From: an uncultured delta proteobacterium
GTDB lineage: Bacteria > Desulfobacterota > Binatia > Binatales > Binataceae
Direction of reading: 5' to 3'
Length of the DNA stretch: 64,000 bases
NCBI GenBank assembly: GCA_963761255.1
Contig: CAVXGH010000006.1
Span: 263,790-327,789 of the forward strand
Below, in pieces: positions 45,297 through 64,000 of the stretch. The translations under genes were made by a program, and so were the position numbers. The notes beneath the pieces were generated by a model, which was not told the DNA's origin, did no database searches, and was given only the letters and a program-made list of their open reading frames with translations. Numbering within the stretch: position 1 is the stretch's first letter; each line of letters starts with the position of its first letter.

Positions 45297-47957
45297 TTAT
45301 AAGGCGATCATCGAGAATGGGCGGGAGGGTTCGGCGCCGTCGCTGGTCAGTCTGGCGATGGCGCTCAATAGGGTCTGCTTCTTGATCGGCTTGCTCACAT
45401 GGAGATTGCAACCCGCCTCCCGCGCGCGCTGAACATCCTCGTCGAGCGCCGATGCGGTCAGGGCGATGATCGGCACCTGAGGCAGTCCCTGCGCGCGTTC
45501 CCATTCACGAATCGCGCGGGTGGCCGCGAAGCCGTCGAGCAGCGGCATCTGGATGTCCATCAGGATGACGTCGTAGCGATTGTTCTTGACGATATCGATC
45601 ACCCGCTGGCCGTTCTCTGCCTCATCGATCTTGAACGAGGTTTTTTGCAGGAAGGCCTTGACCACCAGCCGATTGTCGGGGGAATCGTCGGCCAGCAGGA
45701 TGCGCAGCGCCCTGGAATTTTCGGCGGGAGGATGGTTGACGACGGGAATCAGGCGGCCGCTGCCGAGCGGCTTGAATTCGCGGGCGCCGGCGATCTCGGC
45801 AATCGTGGTGAAAAGATCGTGGCGCCGGATCGGCTTGAAAATGTAATGGCGCAAGCCGACTTCCTGCATCCGCGGCCGGTCGGCGCTCAATGCGGTCGAA
45901 TTGACCATTAGGATCGCAGGTGGAAGCCGCCAGGCGTTTCGACTCAAGCGCCGCAACATCTCGAGGCCATCCATCTGTGGCATGCGCTGGTCGACCAGCA
46001 TCAGATCGAAGGGACTTGCGAGGTCGTTGGCCTTGCGAATGAGCTCGAGGCCTTCCGCCGCGGACCCCGACTGGGCAATCCGCGCGCCACGCAGAGTGAG
46101 CATCTCGGCCAGAATCGCGCGGCTGGTCTGATTGTCATCGGTGATGAGAATCCGCATGCCGCCAAGATCCGGCATCGCGGGCAGTGCCGCATCAGCCCGG
46201 GTCTGGTCGAGGTCGAAGGCAGCGGTGAAGAAAAATGTGCTGCCTTTGCCGGGCGCGCTCTCGGCCCACACGCGGCCGCCCATCAGTCCTACCAGCCGCT
46301 CGACGATCGTGAGCCCGAGTCCGCTGCCACCATATTTTCGGGTGGTGGAAGAATCGGCCTGGGTGAAGGCCGAGAAGATATTGGCCAGCTTGTCCGCGCC
46401 GATGCCGATGCCGGTATCGGAGACGCTGAACCTCAGGTGCGCCGGGTTTTCCGCGGCCGGATCGCGCTCGACCCGAATCGCGACTTCACCCGCATCGGTA
46501 AACTTGATCGCGTTGCCGACCAGGTTGGTGACCACTTGTCGCAAGCGCAGCGGATCTCCGACCAGCCGGGTCGGAACCTCGGGCGCGAATCGAAGCGTGA
46601 GCTCCAATTGCTTTTCGTCGGCGCGCACGGCGAGGGTCTCGATGGTTTTTTCGACGACCTCCGCCAGTTCAAAGGCCGTGGCCTCGAGGCTCAGGCGTCC
46701 GCTTTCCATCCGCGCCAGATCGAGCACGCTATTGATGAGCTCGAGCAGGGCGTTGCCATTGCTGACCAGGGTTCCGACGTAGCGGCTCTGATCGGAATTG
46801 AGCGGAGTTTCCGAAAGCAGATCGGCGGTGCCGAGGATGGCGTTCATCGGGGTGCGAATCTCATGCGACATGCTGGAAAGGAATTCCGACTTGGCCCTCG
46901 AGGCTGCCAGCGCGGCCGCACTCGCGGCCTCGAGCTGACGCTGAGTTTCCTTCAGCTTCGAGACGTCACGCGCGATGAAAAGGGCGCATTGCCGGCCACC
47001 GAGTTCGAGGACCACCGACGAAACCAGCGCGGGCGAGGGCATTCCGTAAGCGCCGCGGGTCATGATTTCTTCGTTGCGAACCTTCAAATCGCTCACCACT
47101 CGCTCAATCAGGCGCTCGGCGCTGGCGTCATCAAACCAGATATTGAGTTCCTGCCAGTGTTTGCCGATCGCCTCTTCGCGGGTGAAGCCGGTCGCGAGCA
47201 AAAATTCCTCGTTCACGTTGATGTAGCGCTGAGTGCGAAGATCGATGATGCAGAGCGGATCGAGGATCGAGTCGAGCGCCTTGCGCAGCGCGGCTTCGTT
47301 GTCCGCCAGGCGCAGATTCTGTTGCGACACCTGATTGCGATTCTGCTCGCCCAGCGACGCCGCGAAATGTCCCACCGCGCCGGCGGTTCCGAATCCCACC
47401 CAATGAAAGAAGGACAGCGTGTCCTGTTTGCTCAGCAGCGCTACCGCGCCAAGGCCGAGAACGGTCGCGGCCGAAAGAGAATCCTGCCAGCGAGTTTCCC
47501 ACGGCAGGAGCGCTCCGGCGCCGAGGACCACCATGAAGCCGCTGATAAAGTAGAACTCCGCGTTTTCATTGAGCAGCGCGAGAGCAGCCACACTGGCGAG
47601 CAGGCAAATGCAACCGAGCAGCGTGAGCTGGCGCCATCGGGCCAGCATCCACCGATGGAAGGTCAGTCGAACAAACAGCAGACCGATACACAAGTTGAAG
47701 GAGTAAAAGAGCGTCGCGAGGGCCGCCGTTTTCGTGTGCGCCAGCAAGGCCGGGACGGCGAGTGCGACCTGTGACAAGGCGACCAGGGTGGCGGCCACCC
47801 GCAACATCACCAGGGCGCGGCCATCCGCGCTCAGCTCGAGCTGCGAGGGCAGCAGCGATTCCCATCGAGTGGATGTCGATGTTCTACCCATATCCCCCTG
47901 AAACGGCCGCCGATCCGGATGCGGAGCCGCGATCGAAGCACCTCTCCCCAAAGGCAT
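45297..47957 (-). CDS. hybrid sensor histidine kinase/response regulator (TM region, PAS, HisKA, HATPase_c, two REC domains)
   Basis: H-box LSSMSHEIRTPMNAI, G-boxes, two receiver domains (…ILITDDN…, …ILLADDSPDN…). Confidence 0.85.
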   Translation of the reverse strand: MPLGRGASIAAPHPDRRPFQGDMGRTSTSTRWESLLPSQLELSADGRALVMLRVAATLVALSQVALAVPALLAHTKTAALATLFYSFNLCIGLLFVRLTFHRWMLARWRQLTLLGCICLLASVAALALLNENAEFYFISGFMVVLGAGALLPWETRWQDSLSAATVLGLGAVALLSKQDTLSFFHWVGFGTAGAVGHFAASLGEQNRNQVSQQNLRLADNEAALRKALDSILDPLCIIDLRTQRYINVNEEFLLATGFTREEAIGKHWQELNIWFDDASAERLIERVVSDLKVRNEEIMTRGAYGMPSPALVSSVVLELGGRQCALFIARDVSKLKETQRQLEAASAAALAASRAKSEFLSSMSHEIRTPMNAILGTADLLSETPLNSDQSRYVGTLVSNGNALLELINSVLDLARMESGRLSLEATAFELAEVVEKTIETLAVRADEKQLELTLRFAPEVPTRLVGDPLRLRQVVTNLVGNAIKFTDAGEVAIRVERDPAAENPAHLRFSVSDTGIGIGADKLANIFSAFTQADSSTTRKYGGSGLGLTIVERLVGLMGGRVWAESAPGKGSTFFFTAAFDLDQTRADAALPAMPDLGGMRILITDDNQTSRAILAEMLTLRGARIAQSGSAAEGLELIRKANDLASPFDLMLVDQRMPQMDGLEMLRRLSRNAWRLPPAILMVNSTALSADRPRMQEVGLRHYIFKPIRRHDLFTTIAEIAGAREFKPLGSGRLIPVVNHPPAENSRALRILLADDSPDNRLVVKAFLQKTSFKIDEAENGQRVIDIVKNNRYDVILMDIQMPLLDGFAATRAIREWERAQGLPQVPIIALTASALDEDVQRAREAGCNLHVSKPIKKQTLLSAIARLTSDGAEPSRPFSMIAL

Positions 47958-48500: not shown

Positions 48501-49699
48501 TTAGTGGGTGGTCGCGACGAATTGTGTTCCCGCATTGTTGTTGGCCGGACTCTCGCTCGCGTAATTCTTGATCAGGCAAACCGGCGCGGTCCCGCATTGG
48601 CTGCTATTCTGCAGGCCCAACAGCGCGATGGTGCCGCTGCCCGAATTCCCCGTGTAGGCAAAAAACCCCGCCGGGTCGACGACCAGCCCGGTCGGTCCGC
48701 TGGAATCGCCCACCGTCGATTGCAGCGTCAATGTCGCGTTGGTTCGGGTAAAGGGCTGCACAAAGTTGACATTGGGGTTCGCGGTCAGAATATAGTTCGC
48801 GCCGCTGACCCCGCCGGCGTTGATAACCGAGCCGATTCCGATCGCGCTGGTGGACTGGGAACTCAAGAAAGTCCCGCTGTAAACCAGGGCGCCGGTGCTG
48901 GCCTGGATGGTGAAGGCAGACACGACGCCGAGGCTTTTGTCGTCCACAAACAGATAGGCCTGGGTGCTGTCAATCGCGATTGCCATCTGACCGGGGTTGG
49001 CCAAAGTGCCGCCGTTGGCCGGAACGGCGCTGCCGATCTGCGAGAGGGTGCCGTTGTCATTGACCAGGAACGAGTAGATGAATCCAGCCGTGTCGTTGAC
49101 ATAGACAAGTCCGAGAGAAGGGTACGAGGTAATCCCAAAAGGCTGTCCGGCGAAACTGCCAAAGACTCCAATCAAGCTCAACGTTCCTTGCGAACCGATC
49201 TGGTATTCGGTAACCGTTTTCGATCCGGAGTTGGTAACATAAACAAAGTTGTCGGAGGAATCGATCGCGATTCCCTGCGGGGTGGTGCCGGACGCGATCT
49301 TTCCGAGACTGGTCAGGCTGCCGAGGACGCCGCTGGTTGCAATGGCATATTGGTAGACATTGCCGTCCGCGGCATTGGCCACAAACACCAGATCTTTTCG
49401 GCCGTTACTGCCACGCCTTCCGGTCCATTGGCAGCCCCCGCCGATTGTTTTGCGATAAATCCTAGCGCGCCGGTATTGGTATTGCGGGTGAACGCGCTCA
49501 CCGTCCCGTCACGGAAATTGGTTGCGTATAGATACGCGTCCGCAACCGGGGTGGCAGTCGAGGTGGTGGACGAGGTGACTTCCGGAAACAATCCCTTGCC
49601 GCATCCGCCGGTACTGCCGAGGAAAAATCCGATCGATACCACCATCGAGACAGCCAGAGCGAAGCGCATCAAGTGCGCAATACTTTTTCGAATGGACAA
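48501..49699 (-). CDS. YVTN/lactonase-type β-propeller lipoprotein; interrupted by a single-base frame change at ~49385 (A-run)
   Basis: N-terminal ORF 49313..49699 (signal + lipobox GGCG, …AYLYATNFRDGTVSAF…) and C-terminal ORF 48501..49388 (…FVANAADGNVYQY…YVTNSGS…) join into …GVAVTAEKDLVFVANAADG… if one A is restored. Confidence 0.6.
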
Positions 49700-49947: not shown

Positions 49948-52900
49948 TCACTTCCCGGATCCTTTCAGCGTTACCACGGTGCTGCCGGTGCTCGGGGCGA
50001 TGACCCCAATCGCCAGGGCGGCCGACGGGTTCACACCTTTGACCGCTGGGATGAAAGTAACTGATATGGCGATGGTCGCGCCCGGCGACAGATCGAAGTG
50101 ACCGGAATTAACGTTGTAGGGAGCGATGTTAACCGGCGCCCAATCGCCACTCAGGAGTCCCTTGCCGATATTCTTGATAGTCAGGCTGGTCGGGAAAGTC
50201 GTTCCGGTCGGCGCAGTGATCGTAAAAGCGCTCGGTACTGAAAGCTTTCCGGCCAGGCCGACGCCAGTCAGCGCGATGCCGATCGAAGGCCGCGTCGCAT
50301 CATTGGTGTTGATGATCGCCGCCGCAGTGTCACTGGAAGATCCGGCGCAAAGGTCATCGATTCGGTTAGTGATTGGCCCGGGGCTATGTCGAAAGAGCCC
50401 TGGCTGACCTGGAAGACCTGACTTCGGGTTGCTGGGCTGGTCATCACACCCAGGTTTCCAATCAGGTCACCCTTACCCGAATTCTTGATGCTGAAGTTCT
50501 TGCTGGTCGATTGCCCAATGGCCACCGAGCCCAGGTTCAAGCTTGCCGGAGCTACGATTTTCGCGCCACTCGGGAGCGGAGTCGGCGTGGGTGTAGCGGT
50601 CTGAGTCGCCGTGGTAGTGGCCGTCGTGGTTGCGGTCGCGGTAGGAGTTGCGGTGATGGTTGCGGTCGAAGTCGCCGTGATAGTCGGAGTTGGAGGCGCC
50701 GTCGGGGTGCTGGTAGGCGTCGCGGTGCTGGTCGCGGTCGCAGTCGCAGTCGGTGTAGGCGTGGGCGCCGCGATGAGCAGCATGGCCTGAGCTGTCACAA
50801 CTTCGGTGCTGCCCGAGAGCGTGGCAAATACCGGGTAGACGGATGACTGAGTGTGGGCGGAAGGAGCCACTCCGTCGGCGAACGCTGCCGCAAACCCCTC
50901 CTTCGCGGAACTCATGTTGAAGCGCTGAGTCAGCAGACTCGACAAGGCCAGAGTCGGCGCATTCGGCGCCTGGGCGCCATAGAAGAATACCTGCAGGTCA
51001 TGGTTGTTGTTCGGGCTTAATGACGGAGCGGAGACACTAACAGGACTAGTTCCGGACGCCGTCGCCCCCGAGGTGTTCTCGATCGGCAACGAAGTTGCTC
51101 CTCTCCATGCGCCCATCACACCAGTGGCAAAGTTGGAGGCTATCGCCCAGGTATAGGAAGCGGGTTCACTCGCACCCGCGACCTTGTAATACAGCCATGA
51201 GGTCGCCTGGTTGCTGCTACCACTGCCGACCGAATCATTGCGAATGCTGGACCAGCCGCTCGGAAAGGTCGGGATATCCGAGCCGGTACCATCGTGGATG
51301 ATGATCTGTGCGATGAGCGTATCGCCTTGCCGAACTCCCGCCGGCAGGGAGACCGGGATGGTTGTCACCGCGGTACTGGAATCGCTCAGCGGGCCCTGGC
51401 CGACGAAACTGATGGTGGTAGTAGGGGTTGCGGTAGCGGTTGGCGTAGCCACCGTGAGAAATGCCGTCTCGAAGGTATTCACATCGGGAGAGCCCCAACC
51501 GGTGGTCAAATCGTAACCCACCGCCGCACTGTATCCGGCGACTTCATTGAAGCCGTTGCTTCCGGTGGTCACGTCACGCAACCCGGATTTGGACGAATTT
51601 GCGAGTGCACCGAGCGCATAGATCCGCGCATTCATGGCTCCCAGCCGACCAGCCGAGATCTGAGCGATCAGCTTCGAGATGCCTGCCCACATCGGGGTGG
51701 CGATGCTGGTTCCCCCGATGCCGCCCATCTCGGCGGGGGATCCCGCCAGATCGTCAACCCACCAGAAACCGGGGGTCGTATTGCTGGCCGCCGCTGACAC
51801 GTCAGGGATGTCGCGCAAACCATCATTCGGGGTGCCGGCGTTTTGGTACGGGGGTTTGGCGAACAGCATGCTTTTGCCGCCGCCGGTTGCGCCTGCGCCA
51901 TTGTTCCAGGCGGCTTCCGGGACATTCCCGACATCGTTGCCCTGGGAATCATAGTTAGGGGAGAACTGGGTTCCACCGACCGCGGTAACATTGGGATTGG
52001 CGGCTAACTCGCTGACATTTTGGGTCGTAGCGGTCACGCAGGTGTTACCGTTTAAGGAGGTCAGACCAGCAGAACCCCAGTCTCCCGTCGCGGCGAAGAC
52101 CGTCTGCCCCTGCATGGCCGCTTGCGTCAGTGCGTTGCCGATGGTGGTGGTGTAAAACGACGACGTGCCGTTGCAGAAGAAATAAGTGAAGCTGATGGTG
52201 CCGCAGGCATTGTCATTGATGGATTTCACGAGCGCGTCGGTCAAAGGATCAATCACTGAGGACGCCTGGTTGCCGAGATACACGTTGATCGGAGCTCCAG
52301 GTGCGGCGACATGGGCCCACTCGATGTCAACCAGGGCCTCGGTTTCATCGCTATTCGTTACAGGACTGGTGGTATCGGCGGGTACCTTAGTCACACTGGC
52401 GGCGGGCAGCGAGAAGCTCGTGTCAAAGGTACTTACCGCGGCGGCTAGGAAGTCGGAGTCCTGGATGATTCCGATGCAGTCGCCGCCGCTCCCATCGATC
52501 GCGCCATTGACCGGAGGCGTTTCATTGTAGAACGTCCAGAGATCCTGAGGGCCGAAAAACACGGTGCTCAGCGCCGGACTGCTGCTGGCTGGCGCTGAGG
52601 TGGCTCGCGTTGATTTGGCGAAACTCGGAAGCTTCACCGTGGCAGCGAGACTGACTGGTCGCGCGGTTACCGGGGTCCAATGACGCAGGTTATCGAGCCC
52701 GTCAAGCGACCCAATGACATCGGTGAAGCGGGCGGGAATTTGCGGAGCCGACGTGTTCGAGAACCTCGCTCCGTCGGCTGATGCGGCTATGGTGGTGGCG
52801 AAAGTCTGCTCCGCTTTCGAGACGGTCGCCACCGCGCTGATCTCGCGATTCGAGGAATGAGTGACATGAAAGCCGTGGCCGGAAAGCCATTGCGATACGG

Positions 52901-53228
52901 CCTGCGTCTCGGCTTGGGTCCGGCCAAATCGCGCGTTGAACTGCGTGGGCGTCAACCAGCGATGATACATCGGAGACGCGGGATTTTGCAGATCGGCCTG
53001 GAGTTTCGCCAGGGCCTCGCGATTGCGAAGCCGAAAGGCCACATGGACTGTTAGTGAGCGTTGGCCAGATGCGCGCGACGACAGAGCCGCAGCCTCCAGC
53101 GGACGATTGTCGCCAAGCGCAACCGTCTGTGCCAGCGCCACACCCGCCGCGAAGGTACCCATCACCGCCAAAAACGAAATGGCAATTACGAGGTGCAGTG
53201 CGCCGCGGCTAACTCCAAACTTTTCCAT
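49948..53228 (-). CDS. secreted S53-family serine peptidase (sedolisin-like), multidomain: pro-domain, catalytic domain, uncharacterised ~200-aa domain, (TP)n linker, two Ig-like C-terminal domains; single-base frame change at ~50335 (C-run)
   Basis: Pro-kumamolisin domain (…YHRWLTPTQFNARFG…), Ser motif IGGTSIATPMWAG. Tail in another frame (…SDTAAAIINTNDATRPSIGIALTG…VVTLKGSGK*) is homologous to the C-terminus of the 1213-aa neighbour. Confidence 0.8.
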
Positions 53229-53335: not shown

Positions 53336-56300
53336 TCACTTACCCACTCCCTTCAAGGTTATGACGGTGGTTTTCCCGCCGGGCGCGTTGACCCCGATCG
53401 GCAATACCACCGAGGGAGCACTGCCTTTGAGAGTCGGGGTGAAATTAATCTGGATGCTTTGGGTTGCGCCGGGTTGCAGGTCGAAGTGCCCCGAGCCGAC
53501 TTGATAGGGCGGGATAGAGACCGGCGCCCAGTCTCCACTCAGTGGTCCCTTGCCGGTGTTTTTGATCGTCAGGGTTGCGGGCAAGGTGATCCCAACCTGC
53601 GAGGTCATTGTAAAGGCCGCGGGCGCCGTCAGTTTTCCCACCAGACCAGTTCCATTGAGTACAACCCCAACTGTGGGCCGGGTTGCATCGTCACTGCTTA
53701 TGAGCGCCAGGGCTGTATCGCTCGGCATGTCAGGCGCGAAAGTCCCAGTTTCGGTAATTGAAGTGCCGGGCGGGATATTGAACGAGCTTTGGTTGACGCT
53801 GAAAACGGATGCTCGCGAGGGCGGATCGATCAATACCTGGACCGTTCCAAGCAGGTTACCCTTACCCGAATTCTTGATGGTGAACTTCCGGGCCGTAGTT
53901 TGACCGATAGCCACCGAACCGAAATTTACCATCGCGGGCACCACGATCTTGGCGCCGGTCGGAACCGGCGTTGGCGTAGGTGTAGTCGTCGGGGTTGGGG
54001 TTGTGGTGGCGGTCGTCGTCGGAGTGGCGGTGGTAGTTGGAGTGGGTGTCGCCGTCCGGGTTGCAGTAGGAGTCGGGGTCGCTGTGGTGGTTGCGGAAGC
54101 GGTCGGCGATGCAGTCGCGGTGGCCGTCGTCGTAGGAGTTGGTGTCGAGGTGGGGGTAGGGGTCACCGTGGCGAGCGCGAGTTGGAACGCTCCGCGTCCG
54201 TGGGTCCCCGCAAACGTCACCCCGACCGAGTTCTGCTCGAGGTCGTACACCGGAACGGTGGGCATTCCGGTAGTGAAAGATTGCCAGGTGGTGCCGCCGT
54301 CGGAACTATGGAAGACCCCGACGTCGGTTGCGGCGAAGACGCTGTTGCTGCAGGGGTTGCCGCCGCAGGAGCCGCTATCGTCGGTCGAATCAACGAGCAC
54401 CTTAAGGACCGGCACGTCCGGTAATCCATTAGTGTTGGCTACGATCGCTCCGCCGGAGATGCTGTTGCCATCCGCCAGCGTCCAGGTCTGTCCAAAATTA
54501 ACGGTCTTGTAGATGTGGCCGACTTGAGTATCAGAGGTAAAACCCGAAAGGCCGAGATACGCGACGTTGAGGTTATGCGGGTCCGGCGCGATGCTGGTGG
54601 CCTGGGTGGATAACGCGCCTAACGGGCTGGTCTTCTTCATCGCGGTGTCCACCCCACCGGTCACATCGACCCAAAAGGCTCCATCAGCATGATTGGCGTC
54701 CAGCTGGACGTTGGATTGCTTGGTGTTGTTAATCGCGAAGGCGACGGTCCCGTCGAGATCGCTCATCGCCAGAGACCAGGCTGGGTAGATGCTGTTCAGA
54801 ACATCGTTGGGCCCAAACTCGAGGTCTTCGATCGCGCAGCTTTGATTGGCGCACATCGCCCCTTCAAAGGTGCCGTCGGAAGTCAGGTCCTGGTCGGTCT
54901 GCTGCGCCCAGTGAGCCATCCCGTCGGTCGAAACATAAACTGAGTGCGCGGCGAACCAAACTCGATGCGCCACGTTGGGGTCGACGGCGAGGGGTGGATA
55001 GAAAACCGGGCCTTCGTCTCCAACGGAGTTGAGCAAGGTTTGCAGGTTGGTTGTCCACTGTTGTCCGAAGACCGCGCAATGGGGATTGGTCTGGTCAGGC
55101 GCGCTGCACCAGTCTTGCCCGCCATCACTGGAGGCCGAAATCTGCGCGTGATCAATCTCGTCGAGCGAGAAGTCGTGGTAGACGTAGTTGGGGTCCTGAA
55201 CGTCATAGAACTCGAAACCGCCGTCGCCGGTCTCGCTGTCAGGAGTGAACCAGTTGGCGACTGAGTTGCTGTATAACTGGGTGCCGTTGTCCTGGAATCC
55301 GGCGATCAGTTTGGTCGAGTCGGTCGGATGGGGTCCGATGCCCTGAATCTGGCCGGCGTTGATTTGCTGATTGAGCGAAACGAAGCTCGGAGCGCTTTGG
55401 GTGGGGTCGAACATGTACAGCCCACCATCGTTTGCTACCAGCACCTGGTTGTTGACAGGATCCCAGACCAACGCGTGCTGATCCGAGTGGACGCCACCAT
55501 TGGCGGCGAGAAAGGTCCACAAATGGCCGTAGCTACCCGCGGATTTGTAAAGCCCTACGCCGCCGAAAAACACGGTGGAGGGGTCAGTGGGAGAGACCAG
55601 CATCGCCTGGTCATAAAACGATTGGGAGAAGTTGTTGGGATTGGTTCCATCGATGGTGGTGCCGTTGGACGTGACGGTCGGAATTGTTGGGGCCAGCACC
55701 GTGCCAGCATTCCAGGTGGCTCCCGCATCGAAGGACGCGAACATCGCTGAGTACTCAAGTCCATCGGAGGCCCCAATCATCGCGTAAACGACTCCACCGG
55801 GCGGATTGGTCGGCCCCAGTGGAGCGCCCACTTTTGGACCCACCGCAAGGCTTTGGCGTCCTTGGATTAGTTTCGCTCCGAGGAAATTGGCCGGATGGAA
55901 AGTTCCACCTCCGTCGTTGGAGTAGTAGACGGTGTCGGAGTCAATCGCGACGTAGACGTTCAGAGGCTGTAATGGGTCGATGACGACATCATCGGCGGGA
56001 CAGGGAGCGTTAGTGTTCTGTCCGCCAATCAGGTCGCAGCCTCCGAAGGTGGATTCCGGATATTGACTCCAACTGGTGCCTCCATCAGTGGAACGCCACA
56101 GTCCGGCCTTGCTGGAATCGGACTCGAAGATTCCGGCATCCGCACGGCTGCCGCTGAATCCACTGGTGGTGCCGGCAAAAATCCGCGGCTTGCCCGGGGT
56201 GGTCTGGGTATCTATCGCCAGCGAGGTAAACGACGCGCGATCGAAGGTTCCGGTCGGTCCCACCGAGGTCCAGGTCTGACCCAGGTTGGTGGATTTGAAC

Positions 56301-56977
56301 ATCCCCGACCCGTACAAGGAGTCGATGGATCCGTTGCCTTCACCGGTGCCCACATAAATCGTGCTGGGGCTAGTCGTGGTATCGAGGGCAATTGCGCCGA
56401 CGGCCTGGGTTGGTTGGTTGTCGAATACCGAAACGAAGCTTCCACCATTGTTGGTGCTGACCCACAACCCGCCCGATGCAGCGCCTACCACGATCAGCCC
56501 AGTCGAATCGACCGCGATGGCGGTCAGACGTCCCGTCATCGCGACGTTGCTTCCGATCGCCGAGCCGGTGAAATTAGCCTTCTCCGACATCGGAAGAGGA
56601 CCCAAAGCCTTCCAAGATCCTGAAATCCCGGCAGCGGAACTCGTCGCGCCGATCGCGCTCGAAGTGGCGCCCGAAGTCGCCGGCGGCCGCGAGGGCAGCG
56701 CTTGTTTCATCGCGCGCATGTGTGACACCGCACGCGGAATTGCCTGCTTCGGAATCCCAAACTGCAGTCCGTGGCGCGAGGACTGAAAGATCTCTCGACG
56801 TACCGCCTCAGGCAGGTGGGTTCCCTCGCTATGTTCGCTAATCTCGGCGCCTTCCGCGGAGGCGGGGAAATCGCGCCCGCAGGAAGTAAGGAAAAGACCC
56901 AGCGCCAACGCCAGGAGCAGGGTCCTCGGCGCGCCGCGTAGAAATTGTCCGGAACTCATTGACTTAATCTCTGGCAA
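53336..56977 (-). CDS. large secreted lipoprotein with BNR/Asp-box β-propeller repeats, (TP)n linker and two C-terminal Ig-like domains
   Basis: Lipobox (…LFLTSCG…); ≥9 Asp-box motifs (STNNGGSF, STNLGQTW, STDGGTSW, SSDGGTTW…); 70-aa Thr/Pro/Ala linker; C-terminal domains homologous to S53 peptidase tails. Confidence 0.7.
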   Translation of the reverse strand: MPEIKSMSSGQFLRGAPRTLLLALALGLFLTSCGRDFPASAEGAEISEHSEGTHLPEAVRREIFQSSRHGLQFGIPKQAIPRAVSHMRAMKQALPSRPPATSGATSSAIGATSSAAGISGSWKALGPLPMSEKANFTGSAIGSNVAMTGRLTAIAVDSTGLIVVGAASGGLWVSTNNGGSFVSVFDNQPTQAVGAIALDTTTSPSTIYVGTGEGNGSIDSLYGSGMFKSTNLGQTWTSVGPTGTFDRASFTSLAIDTQTTPGKPRIFAGTTSGFSGSRADAGIFESDSSKAGLWRSTDGGTSWSQYPESTFGGCDLIGGQNTNAPCPADDVVIDPLQPLNVYVAIDSDTVYYSNDGGGTFHPANFLGAKLIQGRQSLAVGPKVGAPLGPTNPPGGVVYAMIGASDGLEYSAMFASFDAGATWNAGTVLAPTIPTVTSNGTTIDGTNPNNFSQSFYDQAMLVSPTDPSTVFFGGVGLYKSAGSYGHLWTFLAANGGVHSDQHALVWDPVNNQVLVANDGGLYMFDPTQSAPSFVSLNQQINAGQIQGIGPHPTDSTKLIAGFQDNGTQLYSNSVANWFTPDSETGDGGFEFYDVQDPNYVYHDFSLDEIDHAQISASSDGGQDWCSAPDQTNPHCAVFGQQWTTNLQTLLNSVGDEGPVFYPPLAVDPNVAHRVWFAAHSVYVSTDGMAHWAQQTDQDLTSDGTFEGAMCANQSCAIEDLEFGPNDVLNSIYPAWSLAMSDLDGTVAFAINNTKQSNVQLDANHADGAFWVDVTGGVDTAMKKTSPLGALSTQATSIAPDPHNLNVAYLGLSGFTSDTQVGHIYKTVNFGQTWTLADGNSISGGAIVANTNGLPDVPVLKVLVDSTDDSGSCGGNPCSNSVFAATDVGVFHSSDGGTTWQSFTTGMPTVPVYDLEQNSVGVTFAGTHGRGAFQLALATVTPTPTSTPTPTTTATATASPTASATTTATPTPTATRTATPTPTTTATPTTTATTTPTPTTTPTPTPVPTGAKIVVPAMVNFGSVAIGQTTARKFTIKNSGKGNLLGTVQVLIDPPSRASVFSVNQSSFNIPPGTSITETGTFAPDMPSDTALALISSDDATRPTVGVVLNGTGLVGKLTAPAAFTMTSQVGITLPATLTIKNTGKGPLSGDWAPVSIPPYQVGSGHFDLQPGATQSIQINFTPTLKGSAPSVVLPIGVNAPGGKTTVITLKGVGK

Positions 56978-57492
56978 GGCGCTGCCGCTTCAACTTGATG
57001 GTTCGCAAAACCGGAATTGACAATTGTTGACGAACGAATTCCACGCCCCCTATGGTTGCCGATTCTCACTTCAAACGGCCTTTGCCGACCGAACGAAAAA
57101 TCGCAACCAACGAGCTAGACGGCGCGAAAATCGTTGCGCCACCGAGGTTGTGAAAAGAGCGCTCCCCTTTTGAGTCACTTACGCTTCTTTGAACCTAAAA
57201 TTTTATCAGAATGGTCATCAACAGTGCAATCAATTTTTCCGAAGGCGCAAAAAAACGCGATTGGGAGAGCGCGGTTTAGATTCGAACTCGCAGCGAACGA
57301 TGAGGAATCGCATCGATACATTGCGCATCTGAGAGCGTCGTCTCGAAGTTAAACCGATTCTGTTCAATTCTGGCGTAATCGCCGCGCCTGAGCATGCGAG
57401 AAGGCTTCGATGCTTGATCACGAGTGCAAAGATAGGCTTTGAATGTAGCCTCGCAAAAGTGAATTTTGAGTAAGCGAAGGGAAGGAAAGACG

Positions 57493-59820
57493 ATGGAGAA
57501 GAAGCGGCTTCGATTCTCCGATTGGCTATATTCTCCTTCCTTCGTTCCAATCGCGTTAGCGGCGATGGTCGTTGCGATGTTCGCGAGCATCGTTCTCACG
57601 GGCGGCGACCAAGTTCTTTCGCATTCGGGCACTGACCTTTCCGCCGAGTTCGTTTACTGGCGCCAATTCGGCTTTGATCAATTGAGGGCGGGCCACCTCG
57701 CATTATGGAATCCACATGTCTTCAGTGGGGTTCCGTTTATGGGCGGATTTCAAGCGGCCCTGTTCTATCCGCCCGACTGGATTTACCTGATTCTTCCGCT
57801 TCGTACTGCCATCAACTGCGAAATCGTACTGCATGTCTTTCTGATCGGCCTGTTCACCTGGGCATGGCTTCGTCGTTACGATCTGCATCCGTTGGCCCTG
57901 CTTCTTGGTTGCACGGTGACCATGTTCGGGGGGCCGTTCTTCCTTCATATCTATCCAGGGCACCTCGCGACTCTGGACTCGATGGCGTGGATCCCGCTGA
58001 TCCTGCTTACCGTCGATGAACTGGTCGAGAGGCCGAACGCCAAATGGGTATTGGTCGGGATTTTTGCATTCTCGATGCAGTTTCTGGCCGGCCATCCGCA
58101 AACGCTCTTCAACACGATGGTGACGTGTTTGATTTATGGGTCCCTGCGCATGGTCAAGGCTTCATACCGGAAGCAAACGATCATCGCGCTCGCGGTCATC
58201 GGAGTCGGTGCGATCGCGATCACGGCGGTTCAGCTTTGGTCGGGACTGAATGCGTCCGGTGAGGGAACGAGGCAAGGGGGAGTGCCCTTCACCTTCGCGG
58301 CGATGTTTTCCTTTCCGCCGGAAAATCTGCTCACCGTGTTGGTTCCGGGTTTGTTCGGTGACATGACGGGCTTTACTTATTGGGGCCGTTGTTACTTGTG
58401 GGAAATGTCCGCGTTCTTCGGACTCACCGGTCTGGTGATGGCGATCTATGGAAGCATGGTGAGCTTTCGCGGACGCAAACTCTGTCTTTTGATGATAGGC
58501 GTCCCGATCGTTCTCGCACTGGGAAATCACACGCCATTGTTCGCATTGCTGTATCGCTTCGCTCCCGGCTTCGACCATTTTCGTTCGCATTCGAAATTTC
58601 TGGTTCAGGCAACTCCATTCCTGGCGATTTTGACCGGGCACGGGATGAATCGGGTCTTGCAGTCGTCGCGTGGCACGAAAACCGGCGCGCTAGCGGTCCT
58701 GTCAGTCAGCCTGGTTTTGGCGATCGCCGGATTCGCTCTGTGGCATTCGGGTTTTCCGGCGATCAAGGATGCATGGGAGCACGCGATGGATGCGGTCGCT
58801 GCTACCGGCGAGTCGTATCTTCCGTCGCGTAATTACGCGGCTCCTGATTTTGTTGCGAACGCCGCATCTTTCGCCGGATATCAATGCCTCACCGCAGCCG
58901 GCGTTCTTCTCGCGATAGCTCTGCTGCTCTACCTTCGATCATTTAGCCGAGTTGCGGCGATTGCTTTAGCCATTGTGGGAATAGGAGAAATGTTTTGGTT
59001 TGCGAACTCTTCGCTGGCGACGTTTTCCCTGGCGGAGACAGTTCCTACTTCAGTGCGCGACTTTCTAAGCGCGCATCCAGGCGACTATCGAATCCTGGAG
59101 CTGCCGGATCCCAACGGTGCGATCGCGATTGGTGCGGAAGATATCTGGGGCTACGACCCCATGGTGCTGGGACGTTACTCTCAATTCGTCACTTATTCTC
59201 AAGGTGGCGATCCCGCAGATGCCGACATGTACGTGAACTTTTCGAGGATAACGCGCATGCTTGGGCTGTTGCGATTGAAATACGTCTTCCGCAACCAGGT
59301 CATGGTTTCTGAAACGGAAAGATCGCTTCCGCACTTTCTTCTACTCGGCGGATGGGAACGGGAAACTGATCGAAACAATATCCTTAGCTCGCTCGAATCT
59401 TCAGTCTTTGATCCGGAAAGGACTGCCATCCTCGAAGCCGATCCTGAGCCGGCTCCGGTCTCTGGTGAGACATCTCCGGGAACGGTGCAACTCGTTGACA
59501 GCACTACAGACTCGATGACTATATCGGCGCATCTCACGCGACCCAGCCTGCTACTCATTACCGACTGCTACAGTCGCTACTGGCGCGCGGTGGCCGAGCC
59601 GGGCAGCGTTCAGAAAAGCTACCAGGTAGTTCCGGCCGATTATACTTTGCTGGCGGTGCCGCTTTCCGCGGGCGAGCATCGTATGCGCATCGAATATGCT
59701 CCTCCCGGATACACGATAGGGCGATGGATTTCACTGGTAGGCCTGCTTCTATACATATTGGCGGGTGTGTTTTTCTTGCGACGCTCGAAGTTAAATGCCG
59801 CCGCCAGACCAAATGAATAG
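57493..59820 (+). CDS. YfhO-family GT-C-type membrane glycosyltransferase-like protein
   Basis: Multi-TM N-terminal ~500 aa with YfhO-like …WNPHVFSGVPFMGGFQAALFYPPDW…; C-terminal extracytoplasmic β-rich domain. Confidence 0.6.
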   Translation: MEKKRLRFSDWLYSPSFVPIALAAMVVAMFASIVLTGGDQVLSHSGTDLSAEFVYWRQFGFDQLRAGHLALWNPHVFSGVPFMGGFQAALFYPPDWIYLILPLRTAINCEIVLHVFLIGLFTWAWLRRYDLHPLALLLGCTVTMFGGPFFLHIYPGHLATLDSMAWIPLILLTVDELVERPNAKWVLVGIFAFSMQFLAGHPQTLFNTMVTCLIYGSLRMVKASYRKQTIIALAVIGVGAIAITAVQLWSGLNASGEGTRQGGVPFTFAAMFSFPPENLLTVLVPGLFGDMTGFTYWGRCYLWEMSAFFGLTGLVMAIYGSMVSFRGRKLCLLMIGVPIVLALGNHTPLFALLYRFAPGFDHFRSHSKFLVQATPFLAILTGHGMNRVLQSSRGTKTGALAVLSVSLVLAIAGFALWHSGFPAIKDAWEHAMDAVAATGESYLPSRNYAAPDFVANAASFAGYQCLTAAGVLLAIALLLYLRSFSRVAAIALAIVGIGEMFWFANSSLATFSLAETVPTSVRDFLSAHPGDYRILELPDPNGAIAIGAEDIWGYDPMVLGRYSQFVTYSQGGDPADADMYVNFSRITRMLGLLRLKYVFRNQVMVSETERSLPHFLLLGGWERETDRNNILSSLESSVFDPERTAILEADPEPAPVSGETSPGTVQLVDSTTDSMTISAHLTRPSLLLITDCYSRYWRAVAEPGSVQKSYQVVPADYTLLAVPLSAGEHRMRIEYAPPGYTIGRWISLVGLLLYILAGVFFLRRSKLNAAARPNE

Positions 59821-61177
59821 CGGAAACGCCTCATCATCGAGGTTATGGCCGACCTCGCTTAAACAGCTATCGAATTACGCCATACCTGCATTCTTCGTGG
59901 TTCTTCTCGTGGGATTTTGGGGCGTTACCCGGATCGAATGGGTTCCGGGTACGGGATTCGAAGTTGTTTCACCGCGGGTGATTTCCGGCGATGAGCCCCA
60001 TCACCTGCTGGTGCTCAACAGCATCCTTTTCGATCACGACCTGCAGATTCAAGACGACTACATACGCGCGCAAACCGGACTGGACGCGGGAGGCGTACCG
60101 CTGCCGGATCATCACACCATCATCGTAAATCGGCGAACGGGTCAGCACGGTACCTGGTTTGAGCATCACGGCGAGGATGGTTTGACGCCTGGTCCCGATG
60201 TGTATGAGGTGTCCTCACATCCACTGGCGTATCCGGTATTTCTCGCCGCCCTCATTGCGCCCTTTCGGCCGAAGATGGATGACGTTCAACGCGATGCGAG
60301 CCTGGTGATGGTGTTGGTGTCGTGGCTTGGCGCGATTTTCACGTTTCTGCTTGCTCGAAGAGTCGGATTGGGAGCTGGTTACGCACTGCTCGCGACCGCC
60401 CTCCTCGCGCTGGCTAGCCCATGGCTCGCATACAACCGATCATTTTTTGTCGAACCGGTCATCGGCCTGACAGCGGTGATTTCATTGTACGCACTGGAGG
60501 GGGAGCGCCCGATCCTCGCAGGTGCGGCCGCCGCGGCCGCGGCGATTTTCAAGCCGCCGTTGGCGGTGATCGGCGCCGGCTTCGCGATCGATCGCATGCA
60601 GCGAAAGCGTTGGCACGATGTGATCGTGTTGCTCGCGGTGCTGGGTGTCTCTGGCTTTGTTCTGGTGTGTTTCAATTATTGGCTGGCACGCACGCTGGTC
60701 ATCTCCGGTAACGTCAGCGGTCCGTGGCCGTTTGGTTCGAACACCGCGCATGACTTCCGTCGTCTCGGAGACACTTTTATCGGAAGCGATCACGGGCTGT
60801 TCATCTTCGCGCCGTGGACGATTTTTGCGATCTTTCCGATCGGCAAGGCGTTCTGCTCCTTGGATGCCAGCCCGCGGTTCCTTCGCGAGATGTCGCTGCC
60901 GCTGGCGATGCAGCTGGTGCTCCTGACGGCTTCCAATTTTGACGTCGGCGCCTGCTACGGGCCGCGTTACTGGATCCCGTTTTTACCGTGGATGGCGGTC
61001 GCCGCAGCTTACACCGTAAAGTCCGCGGGCTGGACCTGGAAAAGCATCTTCGTCGCGCTTGCGGCGGTTAGTCTCGCGATCTCGATCGCCGGCGCCCTCC
61101 GATATCCGCAAATGTTTTCGCTCTCGCCATGGTTCCTCTGGCATACCGAGGCGACCAGCGCGAATCTGCTCTTCTGA
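59795..61177 (+). CDS. GT-C-fold membrane glycosyltransferase-like protein (PMT/ArnT-like), shorter paralogue of 40343..42433
   Basis: …RIEWVPGTGFEVVSPRVISGDEPHHLLVLNSILFDHD… and conserved TM core …CYGPRYWIPFLPW…. Confidence 0.55.
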   Translation: MPPPDQMNSGNASSSRLWPTSLKQLSNYAIPAFFVVLLVGFWGVTRIEWVPGTGFEVVSPRVISGDEPHHLLVLNSILFDHDLQIQDDYIRAQTGLDAGGVPLPDHHTIIVNRRTGQHGTWFEHHGEDGLTPGPDVYEVSSHPLAYPVFLAALIAPFRPKMDDVQRDASLVMVLVSWLGAIFTFLLARRVGLGAGYALLATALLALASPWLAYNRSFFVEPVIGLTAVISLYALEGERPILAGAAAAAAAIFKPPLAVIGAGFAIDRMQRKRWHDVIVLLAVLGVSGFVLVCFNYWLARTLVISGNVSGPWPFGSNTAHDFRRLGDTFIGSDHGLFIFAPWTIFAIFPIGKAFCSLDASPRFLREMSLPLAMQLVLLTASNFDVGACYGPRYWIPFLPWMAVAAAYTVKSAGWTWKSIFVALAAVSLAISIAGALRYPQMFSLSPWFLWHTEATSANLLF

Positions 61178-61588: not shown

Positions 61589-64000
61589 ATGAAGCGAGCC
61601 CTATCGACGCTTGGGCTAGCCGAAACGCATGGATCGGTCTCGAGGCCGATCGGATTTGATGGGTCGGCACAGCCCGCATCATTGAGCACTAACGTCGCGC
61701 GCAACCATAACGCGGAACCTCGTTTCCGTGCAGTTCCTTTTTTTCCTCGCTTCGTCGCTCTGCTGATCGCCGTCATGTTCGTAGGCATCGGCACGAGTGC
61801 CGCCAATGCGCAAACACTCAGCCTGGTAACCTCGCAACAAGCCCTGCAATCGAACGACAACGTTTCATGGGCACAGCTCAATTCCAACAACGGCGCAACC
61901 ACGCTGCCCGCGAGCTTCAATGTCACTTCCGCAAACGCGAATCCAATCACCGTCAGCCTGACCGGCGCCAATAGTGTCCCCGCGGTAAGCTGTCCCGCAT
62001 CAACATGCAGTTGGATGGGCTCCGAGATGCCAGCCGGTGATACTCTGGTTTGGACCTCGGATGGAAACAACGGAGGCAACGGTCCTCTCACTGCAACTTT
62101 CGGACATCCACAGACCGCCGTCGGCGCCTACATCCAGGCCGATGGGCCGGGGCAGTTCGTAGCGCAAATTCAGGCCTTCAACAGCGCGGGCCTGTCGTTG
62201 GGGACCCTTTCCGAAACCAGCGATGCGACCGGCGATGCCATGTTCATCGGCGTTCAGGATCACGCGGGCGCGCAGATTTCCACGATCGTTTTCAGTCTGG
62301 TCAGTGCGCAGGGACCGGTGTCGGACTTCGCCCTCGATAGCTTGTTCCTCAATGGCCCGGTGTTGCCTACGCCGACCGCCACCGTAACTCCTACTATCAC
62401 GCCGACCAGAACTCCGACGGCGACCCCGACACCCAATGTTACACCCACGCCAACTCAGGCGGGGACACCAACTCCGACTCCCGCGCCGAGTCAGAGTGTG
62501 ACGCCGACGGTCACCGTGACACCCACGAAGACCGCCACGGCGACCTTAACTCCGACGCGCACGCCTACTGCGACTTTCACCGCGACGCCCACCTTAACGG
62601 CGACGCTCACCGTGACGGCCACACCGGTGCCGACGATTCCGCCACCCACCTTGACGCCAACCGCCACCTTGACGCCCACCGTCACCCCGACTCCGACGGT
62701 GACGGCCACGCCGACTCCGACCGCGACGCCTACGACAAGCATCGCTTTCGTCGGCGCGGGGCCGCTGGCCGACTACAGCACCGCGGTGACGACAGTAACA
62801 CTCGGTCTGCCGGCCGGCGTGCAAGCGGGCGATACGCTGCTCGCGCAGATTATCGTCTATGACGGTACTGGCTCGGATGTTCCCACCGCGCCCAGCGGAT
62901 GGACGAGCATTCGCCACGACAGCATCAGCAATGGCCTCCTGGCGACCTCATGGCTCTTTTACAAGACCGCGGGCACCAACGAGCCTTCTTCTTACGGATG
63001 GAACATCAGCTCGAACTGGGCCGCTGGCGCCATGGGCGCCTGGCGAGGTGCGTCGGTCGCCCCGATCGATAGTGCTTCGGGAACGACAGCCTCGGGCGCG
63101 CTGACGATATCTGCTTCGGCGCCCTCGCTCACGCCGAGCGCCGACGATGAGTTGCAAGTGTACTTCTATGGATCGCAGTCTCACGTTGGCCCGACCATAA
63201 CTCCCTCGAGCAGCCTCAACCAGCGCTTCGATGCGAGCTCGTCGAAGGAAGGCTTCGCACTCGCCTTCGCAGACCTCGCGGCGCCTTTCGCAAACAATGC
63301 TTCGCTCGCGTATCCCTCGGTGACGAGCATCTCTGGTACTGCGGTGGTGACGGCCCAGGCGGTTTTGTTGACCGCGACAGCGCTAACTCAAAGTCCGACG
63401 CCCACAATTCCGGCGACGAAAACCGCGACCTCAACTCCCATCCCGACGACCACGCCGACGTTTACCTCGATTCCGACCAACACCGCCACGGTAGTTCACA
63501 CGCCGACCATCACCGCCACGCTCACCTCCACGGCGGTTTCAACTCCCACGCCGACACCGGTCGCGAATATCACCTTCGTCGCGACGGGGCCGCTCGCGGA
63601 CTACAGCACCGCGGTAACTACGGTTACCGTAGGGTTGCCTTCCGGCTTGCAGGCAGGCGACACCATGGTCGCTCAGCTCCTCATCTATGATGGCAGCGCC
63701 TCCGACGTCCCGACCGCGCCGAGCGGCTGGAACCTCATTCGTCACGACTCGGTAAACAACGGCAACAAAGCGACCTCATGGCTCTATTACAAGACCGCCG
63801 GTGCCAATGAGCCCGCGTCCTACGGATGGAACATCAGCTCGAACTGGGCAGCCGGTGTCATGGCGGCATGGCGCGGCGCGTCGGTTGCTCCGATCGATAG
63901 CGATGCGGGCGCGATCGCATCCACCGGCAATCCGGTTTCGGTCGCCGCTCCCTCGCTGACTCCATCTACCAACAATGAGCTGCAGATCTACTTCTACGGA
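61589..64000 (+). CDS. secreted repeat protein (3'-partial at window end): N-terminal β-domain, long Thr/Pro linker, then ≥2 copies of an uncharacterised ~200-aa domain separated by TP linkers. Not in the supplied ORF track because no stop is reached
   Basis: Manual translation from ATG 61589 is open to 64000. Signal-like …[20 protein letters not shown]. Domain copies at ~62738-63350 and ~63560-64000 (…[14 protein letters not shown](L/V)GLP(A/S)G(V/L)QAGDT…ATSWL(F/Y)YKTAG(T/A)NEP(S/A)[13 protein letters not shown]…[12 protein letters not shown]…). Confidence 0.6.

Follow-up and report, generated by a model that had tools for sequence, protein, structure and literature searches.

Carbohydrate-binding modules (CBMs) and lectin-like accessory domains (LamG, Laminin_G_3) are non-catalytic extracellular beta modules that are joined by Thr/Pro linkers, also in tandem, to diverse enzymes, and PPC (PF04151) and P-domains are located downstream of the subtilase-clan catalytic domain in secreted proteases. 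Beta-rich domains of mycobacteriophage baseplate accessory proteins have been described, from cryo-electron microscopy, as CBM-like host-glycan binders (PMC13252515). Here, a domain with features in common with all of these, referred to as domain X, was analysed in a stretch of 64,000 nucleotides (the window; contig CAVXGH010000006.1 of assembly GCA_963761255.1, positions 263,790 to 327,789 of the forward strand) from an uncultured member of the Binataceae. Binatia are uncultured bacteria that abound in soil and sediment, and their expression of extracellular peptidases has been reported (bioRxiv 10.1101/2022.03.11.484050). In the window, domain X was found once in a secreted S53 peptidase and twice in a secreted tandem-repeat protein, and it has homologues among the domains of phage tail proteins. 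With modest confidence, it is read as a non-catalytic binding or anchoring module that forms a new, unnamed family.

Domain X copies and their carrier proteins

Copy 1 of domain X spans 50766-51413 of the window on the minus strand, corresponding in translation to residues 606-821 of an open reading frame (ORF) of 986 residues. Copies 2 and 3 are on the plus strand at 62741-63376 and 63569-64000, respectively, the last being represented by its first 144 residues and ended by the window edge. Scored with a hidden Markov model (HMM) built from relatives of domain X, the three copies gave independent domain E-values of 7e-95, 2.4e-99 and 2.7e-73, by which chance similarity among them is excluded, and no fourth copy was present in a six-frame HMM scan of the 64-kb window. 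Identity was 61% between copies 1 and 2 (212 residues), 62.5% between copies 1 and 3 (144 residues) and 73% between copies 2 and 3. All copies are flanked by Thr/Pro/Ala-rich linkers, delimited from the translations: one 3' of copy 1 (50574-50765, minus; also assigned by its composition), a long Thr/Pro-rich linker of about 114 residues ahead of copy 2 (62399-62740, plus), and a Thr/Pro-rich linker from copy 2 to copy 3 (63377-63568, plus). Domain X is a real unit with defined boundaries. The original prediction, made from the letters of the window, had described a domain of about 200 residues common to an S53 peptidase and a tandem-repeat secreted protein, with Thr/Pro linkers between the copies, and both points were confirmed, with three copies found and Thr/Pro-rich stretches beside each of them. 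It had placed the peptidase copy at 50830-51445, which is the correct locus with inexact ends (about 64 nucleotides short on the C-terminal side and starting about 30 nucleotides inside the upstream linker), and had rightly recognized the copies as similar while putting their identity at 55-60%, slightly below the measured 61-73%.

The carrier of copy 1 is a secreted S53 (sedolisin-family) peptidase ORF (50268-53228, minus; 986 residues as read in the window), recognized by PF09286 and by phmmer to 6m8w. From the N-terminus it comprises a hydrophobic signal peptide, a pro-kumamolisin activation domain, the catalytic domain, a Thr/Pro linker, domain X, a Thr/Pro and Thr/Ala linker and an Ig-like domain. 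The activation (pro)domain (residues 50-180; 52689-53081, minus) matched PF09286 (Pro-kuma_activ) with an E-value of 8.9e-24 and 84.8 bits against a cut-off of 23.5. The Pfam S8/S53 profile itself gave no match. With phmmer against the PDB, the catalytic region (about residues 296-585; 51474-52343, minus) matched sedolisin and tripeptidyl-peptidase 1 structures at E-values of 1.7e-20 to 1.3e-14, the best matches being 6m8w and 1ga1 (1.7e-20 over residues 314-585), and the Ser-containing GGTS motif of the query (GGTSIATP) was paired with GGTSLASP of sedolisin. Judged from its sequence, the carrier of copy 1 is a true secreted sedolisin, and the earlier S53 call stands on both the Pro-kuma_activ match and the 6m8w match. 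An exact-sequence look-up of the protein returned no record.

The Ig-like domain of this protein (choice-of-anchor D or HYDIN-ASH type, residues 889-962; 50343-50564, minus) matched NF012200 (E 9.5e-8) and PF22544 (E 5.7e-5), both under the curated cut-offs. The window ORF is frameshifted near 50331-50403, and its final 25 residues or so are Arg-rich nonsense. When the C-terminus of the ortholog L004 was used in tblastn, its residues 123-273 aligned to 50403-49951 in a different frame (75% identity, E 3e-72), which marks the continuation of the gene, with a second Ig-like domain, at 49951-50403 (minus). The syntenic ortholog of the S53 gene is 79% identical. The frameshift is probably an indel error, because related hits also held garbled fragments; it could also be a real pseudogenisation.

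Copies 2 and 3 are encoded by a partial ORF (61589-64000, plus; from translation) that leaves the window at its end. The secreted protein begins with a signal peptide and an N-terminal domain of about 200 residues (61811-62398, plus), followed by the long Thr/Pro linker and the two copies. No Pfam or NCBIfam family was matched by this protein, nor by its N-terminal domain taken separately. The N-terminal domain, a second uncharacterised domain, also starts six Binataceae domain X proteins (L008, L010, L013, L016, L017 and L025). One of these, L016, is the syntenic ortholog of the partial gene (77% nucleotide identity, 1015 residues); since it carries three copies of domain X and stops 9 residues past the third, three is most likely also the exact copy number of the window gene. 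The window is syntenic, at 77-79% nucleotide identity, with CAWFBH010000016.1 of the metagenome-assembled genome (MAG) MFD02248.bin.2.83.

Predicted fold, conserved residues and homology to phage tail proteins

Neither Pfam-A nor NCBIfam contained a family that the window copy matched at E ≤ 1, in 40 close relatives no match from either library overlapped domain X, and nothing better than an E-value of 0.048 (Pfam) or 0.013 (NCBIfam) was obtained for 25 diverse members, which are about 25% identical. The domain had not been recognized as a known Pfam family in the original prediction, and these three sets of searches agree with that. Profile searching did not assign it to any named domain family, the sole profile matches being PHROG 3329, phrog_13624 and phrog_553. 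PDB sequences searched with phmmer and with a domain X profile gave nothing at E ≤ 10, and no paper among the examined literature search results describes the domain.

The AlphaFold2 model of the window copy, computed from an alignment of 40 sequences, had a pLDDT of 95.2 and a pTM of 0.91 and contained 15 beta strands and no helix. A model of the canonical stand-alone member P0221 (pLDDT 87) displayed the same strand pattern. The beta-rich character suggested earlier is thus reproduced by an all-beta model, and the lectin or jelly-roll label that accompanied it was not supported: Foldseek against 350,542 PDB chains gave no match at E < 1e-3 for either of these two independent models, the best TM-scores being 0.30 and 0.26. 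The weak PDB matches (bicupins, PRD1 P3, DeCLIC, peptidylglycine alpha-hydroxylating monooxygenase (PHM) and CBMs associated with glycoside hydrolases; TM-scores of at most 0.30) were rejected as evidence for the fold. No similarity to a CBM or lectin (ConA-like, LamG, galactose-binding-like and others) was found in the PDB sequence, profile and Foldseek searches. A lectin-like nature of domain X is still plausible.

Conservation was counted across 108 non-redundant segments, in the numbering of the window copy. The most conserved residues were P24 (100%), W54 (99%), P51, G53, P110, D31 (92%), E83 (91%), P84, Y87, A35, G187 and L213; R164 (60%) and D180 (70%) were less constant. In a profile-profile comparison (hhalign), the N- and C-terminal halves of the domain were aligned over 80 columns with a probability of 94.7%, an E-value of 6e-8 and a score of 41.9, compared with 8.7 ± 1.8 (maximum 14.3) for 40 column-shuffled controls and 8.5 for the reversed control. 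The pattern P-x-G...GD...A...T-x-P-x-GW-T of the first half corresponds to P-S...T...L-V...T-P-P-x-G-M-T-E-R of the second. Since the score is far above the controls, domain X is an ancient tandem duplication of a beta unit of about 100 residues. This agrees with the weak Foldseek matches to two-lobed beta proteins, without assigning a fold. In the Binataceae subfamily, the TPP-x-GMTER and GATG motifs of the family have been lost from the C-terminal half. The original prediction was silent on the internal duplication, as it was on the very large phage-linked family and on the mostly C-terminal position of the domain on many different enzymes.

The PHROG matches connect domain X to phages. PHROG 3329 (function unknown) was matched by 14 of the 25 diverse members, the lowest E-value being 5.7e-11 and that of the window copy 2.6e-9; phrog_13624 was matched by nine of the 25, and phrog_553 ('minor tail protein') by one. 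Foldseek against BFVD gave 75 matches to predicted structures of phage proteins at E ≤ 1e-3, with TM-scores of 0.6-0.79 over the whole domain; in the top matches the query-normalized TM-score was 0.71-0.79 and the root-mean-square deviation 3.1-3.7 over 211-225 columns. Among these matches are minor tail proteins from the Mycobacterium phages Gaia, Hawkeye, Tweety, Tonenili and PP, a glycerophosphodiester-phosphodiesterase (GDPD) protein of a Microbacterium phage, and proteins of Rhizobium, Sinorhizobium, Synechococcus and Clavibacter phages; many are phage proteins of 200-250 residues made of domain X alone. The 1331-residue minor tail protein gp21 of Rhodococcus phage Jflix2, whose gene directly follows the tape measure gene, aligns to the whole of domain X with all motifs present, the homologous region of gp21 being at about residues 686-915. 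Phage proteins found at the sequence level hold two adjacent copies. In tblastn against a phage collection, only records of Rhodococcus and Gordonia (pro)phages and of one Mycobacterium (pro)phage were returned, with marginal to moderate E-values, and the phage link therefore rests mainly on the PHROG profiles and the BFVD structures. Domain X is homologous to phage tail-protein domains. No phage genes were found around the window carriers, which have secretion signals and are cellular secreted proteins; they are not tail proteins, though the domain is common to both.

A catalytic role has to be considered at this point. The near invariance of D31 and E83 across the 108 non-redundant members, the label 'hydrolase' of phrog_13624 and the frequent occurrence of depolymerases on phage tail proteins would fit a new type of catalytic domain, perhaps a hydrolase or lyase that attacks polymers of the cell envelope by means of Asp31 and Glu83. 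We regard this as quite improbable: the 'hydrolase' label belongs to a profile of 651 positions, of which domain X covers only about 16-207, Foldseek against the PDB showed no similarity to any catalytic fold, and arrays of two to six copies and fusion to many enzyme classes typify binding modules.

Distribution, architectures and proposed role

An exhaustive profile search of 1.84 billion cluster representatives (clusters at 50% identity) returned 9244 proteins at E ≤ 1e-3, of which 3518 also passed E ≤ 1e-10 and 206 passed E ≤ 1e-30. Family members occur in bacteria of the Candidate Phyla Radiation, in Bacteroidota, Actinomycetota and Binatia, and in many tailed phages. The sources that bear a name are Candidatus Saccharibacteria, Bacteroidota and Geodermatophilus, and the names given to the proteins at source are 'hypothetical' or generic (JGI PilV and MshQ labels, a label for a T9SS (type IX secretion system) sorting domain). 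Given this spread, next to no credence is left for the notion that domain X is not real and arises as a by-product of low-complexity Thr/Pro/Ala sequence or of recent gene conversion. Its flanks are indeed low-complexity Thr/Pro linkers; these fall outside the conserved block, the model reaches a pLDDT of 95, and thousands of clusters across phyla and phages have the same motifs. An artefact of low complexity was rejected on these grounds.

The best 190 proteins contain one to six near-full copies of domain X each. In a Pfam census of 50 diverse carriers, supplemented by two carriers scanned separately, the partners were cadherin-like, Big_9 and FN3 domains, DUF6701 (MshQ-like, four proteins), Kelch propellers, metallophosphoesterase, GDSL lipase, the N-terminal domain of BNR sialidase, Laminin_G_3, DUF4082, Peptidase_A4 and sedolisin. 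Domain X is inserted in one family member whose N-terminus is type IV pilin-like, and another member has a PAAR domain. The proteins with pilin-like, PAAR and MshQ-like contexts (P0201, P0276 and the DUF6701 carriers in alignment A4) are all from outside the Binataceae; such contexts hint at a role at pilus or spike tips.

In arrays of up to six copies, domain X is interleaved with He_PIG, cadherin-like and Big_9 domains. Such arrays, and the phage proteins of 200-250 residues consisting of domain X alone, which could be baseplate building blocks, would be expected if domain X were a structural or oligomerizing module, that is, a spacer, stalk or trimerization unit devoid of a ligand of its own and comparable to the Ig-like or FN3 spacers of adhesins and the assembly domains of phage baseplates. 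This possibility is rated as improbable, since charged and aromatic positions (P24, D31, W54, E83-P84, Y87 and P110) are strongly conserved at about 25% identity, which is unusual for simple spacers, and spacing is already supplied by the flexible Thr/Pro linkers. Both the structural and the catalytic explanations are less likely than binding.

A close subfamily (50-81% identity) was found only in MAGs of Binataceae or of 'uncultured delta proteobacterium'. It comprises 44 loci, of which the MAG MFD04944.bin.1.36 has at least 11 and which often form clusters on a single contig, and 84 copies of domain X in 44 proteins, whose linkers consist of 32% Thr, 19% Pro and 16% Ala. Partner classes were defined by local clustering of the protein parts other than domain X and were S53 peptidase (10 proteins, that of the window included), a propeller-like class N- or C-terminal to domain X (13), PMP-type beta-helix repeats (11), the N-terminal domain of the partial window gene (seven), BNR/sortilin propellers (four) and, further, Peptidase_C25, others and one region read as glycosidase-like with no family match. 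Genomic islands of adjacent large secreted-protein genes were observed on CAWAMM010000006.1 (L030, L014, L031, L013, L005 and L012; 119-295 kb) and on CAWFBH010000016.1 (L007, L016 and L004; 37-75 kb), and L001/L041 represents three consecutive domain X genes. No sorting or attachment gene is conserved beside the domain X genes across the 44 loci, where only orthologous synteny and no universal neighbour was seen.

In one form of the binding proposal, which is unlikely as it stands and nevertheless a serious variant, domain X binds the envelope of its own producer (lipopolysaccharide, exopolysaccharide or S-layer glycan) and so displays secreted enzymes on the cell instead of letting them go, in functional analogy to SLH domains or other C-terminal anchoring domains; the phage copies would then be explained by phages targeting the same surface polymers. 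It accords with the position of domain X as the last element, at most 12 residues before the stop, in 28 of the 44 Binataceae proteins, with its presence on carriers of unrelated activities, with the many copies per genome (the 11 or more loci of MFD04944.bin.1.36) and with its homology to tail proteins, which must bind cell surfaces. Domain X is, however, internal or N-terminal in the other 16 proteins, Ig-like domains follow it in the S53 protein of the window, and the loci lack a conserved neighbouring sorting or attachment gene. A bolder version, which must be called doubtful, holds that domain X is a beta fold without a solved representative, common to phage tail proteins and cells, that Binataceae have amplified, to dozens of copies per genome and mostly at C-termini, as a general address tag of the secretome. 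If this were true, the tag would display enzymes on the cell's own envelope or direct proteases and other hydrolases to other microbes' surfaces by the recognition principle by which phages find their hosts, and it would constitute a new surface-targeting or display system, not one more CBM.

The reading that we favour, that of a non-catalytic binding or anchoring module, would work as follows. Domain X is an all-beta module of about 215 residues, autonomous and extracellular, built from a duplicated unit of about 100 residues, that Thr/Pro linkers join to secreted enzymes (here the sedolisin) and that other secreted proteins carry as tandem repeats. Its proposed task is to fasten the carrier to a polymer surface, for instance a glycan of the cell envelope or matrix or some other insoluble polymer, which would keep the enzyme near its substrate or on a surface; tandem copies would add avidity, as in CBMs and phage receptor-binding modules. 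A common scaffold or surface ligand, as opposed to catalysis, is suggested because the carriers act on unrelated substrates (protein, glycan and ester). Binding is further suggested because enzymes seldom come as arrays of two to six copies attached to other enzymes, because the other carriers are phage tail, pilin-like, cadherin-like or MshQ-like adhesin proteins, and because beta-rich accessory domains of the mycobacteriophage baseplate have been described as CBM-like (PMC13252515). That the domain binds, and what kind of ligand, are inferred, and the binding role is based on architecture and phage-tail homology, not on any similarity to lectins. The role in binding or targeting that had been predicted is still the most plausible one; domain X is mostly C-terminal on many different enzymes and is not protease-specific.

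Several points weigh against the binding proposal. The conservation of D31 (92%), E83 (91%), R164 (60%) and D180 (70%) at about 25% identity could reflect a catalytic or metal site instead; in phage proteins the domain might serve assembly and not the recognition of hosts; the annotations of these phage proteins are generic ('minor tail protein') and lack an experimental basis; and no lectin or CBM similarity was detectable in the sequence, profile and Foldseek searches.

Neighbouring genes and comparison with known modules

The S53 gene is adjoined by a gene at 53336-56977 (minus) for a secreted BNR/sortilin-like beta-propeller protein of 1213 residues, which has a Thr/Pro linker and two HYDIN/ASH (choice-of-anchor D-like) Ig domains, the C-terminal module that the S53 protein also has. 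In L007, L022, L026 and L031, domain X is joined to paralogues of the N-terminal part of this propeller protein, in L007 together with Peptidase_C25. Directly upstream of the tandem-repeat gene, at 57466-61177 (plus), are genes for two polytopic membrane proteins, one YfhO-like (784 residues; PF09586 with E 2e-6, under the cut-off) and one of 460 residues with a faint match to DolP-mannose mannosyltransferase. The order of this pair and the tandem-repeat gene is preserved in three other Binataceae loci (L013, L016 and L025). Speculatively, the two could belong to the GT-C-type glycosyltransferases and either glycosylate the Thr/Pro linkers or produce the polymer bound by the domain. On the other side of the S53 gene, two overlapping ORFs at 48501-49699 (minus) look like a single gene split by another frameshift, one of 128 residues (49313-49699) with an apparent lipoprotein-type signal and one of 295 residues (48501-49388) with matches to lactonase/NHL-type beta-propellers. 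Upstream of the secreted-protein cluster, at 45297-47957 (minus), is an ORF of 886 residues that was judged from its translation to be a hybrid sensor histidine kinase.

Current annotation resources leave the domain X family of more than 9000 clusters (50% identity) blank, and sequence and Foldseek searches detect no solved structure for it. With a name for the family, thousands of 'hypothetical' regions would gain an annotation, among them parts of the minor tail proteins of actinobacteriophages, which are relevant to host-range engineering. The ligand would explain how Binatia position their secreted enzymes and might reveal a recognition module common to phages and cells. As a candidate for a new domain family, domain X is solid; its function is inferred, and no new mechanism has been demonstrated.

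Among described systems, CBMs and lectins are modules appended to diverse enzymes via flexible linkers, often in tandem, and domain X satisfies the same description; it differs from them in being larger (about 215 residues), internally duplicated and free of sequence or Foldseek similarity to them. PPC has the same position downstream of a protease domain, whereas domain X is about twice as large, occurs in tandem and is found on carriers that are not proteases. PF04151 gave no match at E ≤ 1 downstream of the protease domain, and identity with PPC or a P-domain was rejected for want of a profile match and because domain X is not protease-specific. Sorting signals of the T9SS (Por_Secre_tail) or PEP-CTERM type had no profile match in the window proteins and were likewise rejected, given the size and tandem copies of domain X and the occurrence of T9SS C-terminal domains alongside it; in Bacteroidota members Por_Secre_tail follows domain X as a separate domain. 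Bicupins, double jelly-roll capsid proteins and PHM, the best non-significant Foldseek matches in the PDB, are also two-lobed or duplicated beta proteins, and TM-scores of at most 0.30 and E-values of 5.7e-3 or higher provide no evidence of homology or common topology with such two-lobed beta-sandwich folds. In DUF6701 (MshQ-like) proteins, domain X co-occurs with the MshQ-typical C-terminal domain. Closest of all are the phage domains of PHROG 3329, phrog_13624 and phrog_553, which have in common with domain X the motifs P-x-G...GD, P-x-GW, YK-x-AG-x-x-EP-x-x-Y-x-W and a C-terminal L-x-P as well as tandem copies; their carriers are virion proteins, whereas the window copies are on cellular secreted proteins, among them the sedolisin, and these families are themselves without an assigned function or solved structure. 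As an accessory beta module of secreted enzymes and phage tail proteins, domain X is of a familiar kind; what is new, within the resources searched, is how large the family is, that it occurs in phages as well as in cells, that it has expanded in Binataceae and that the domain is internally duplicated.

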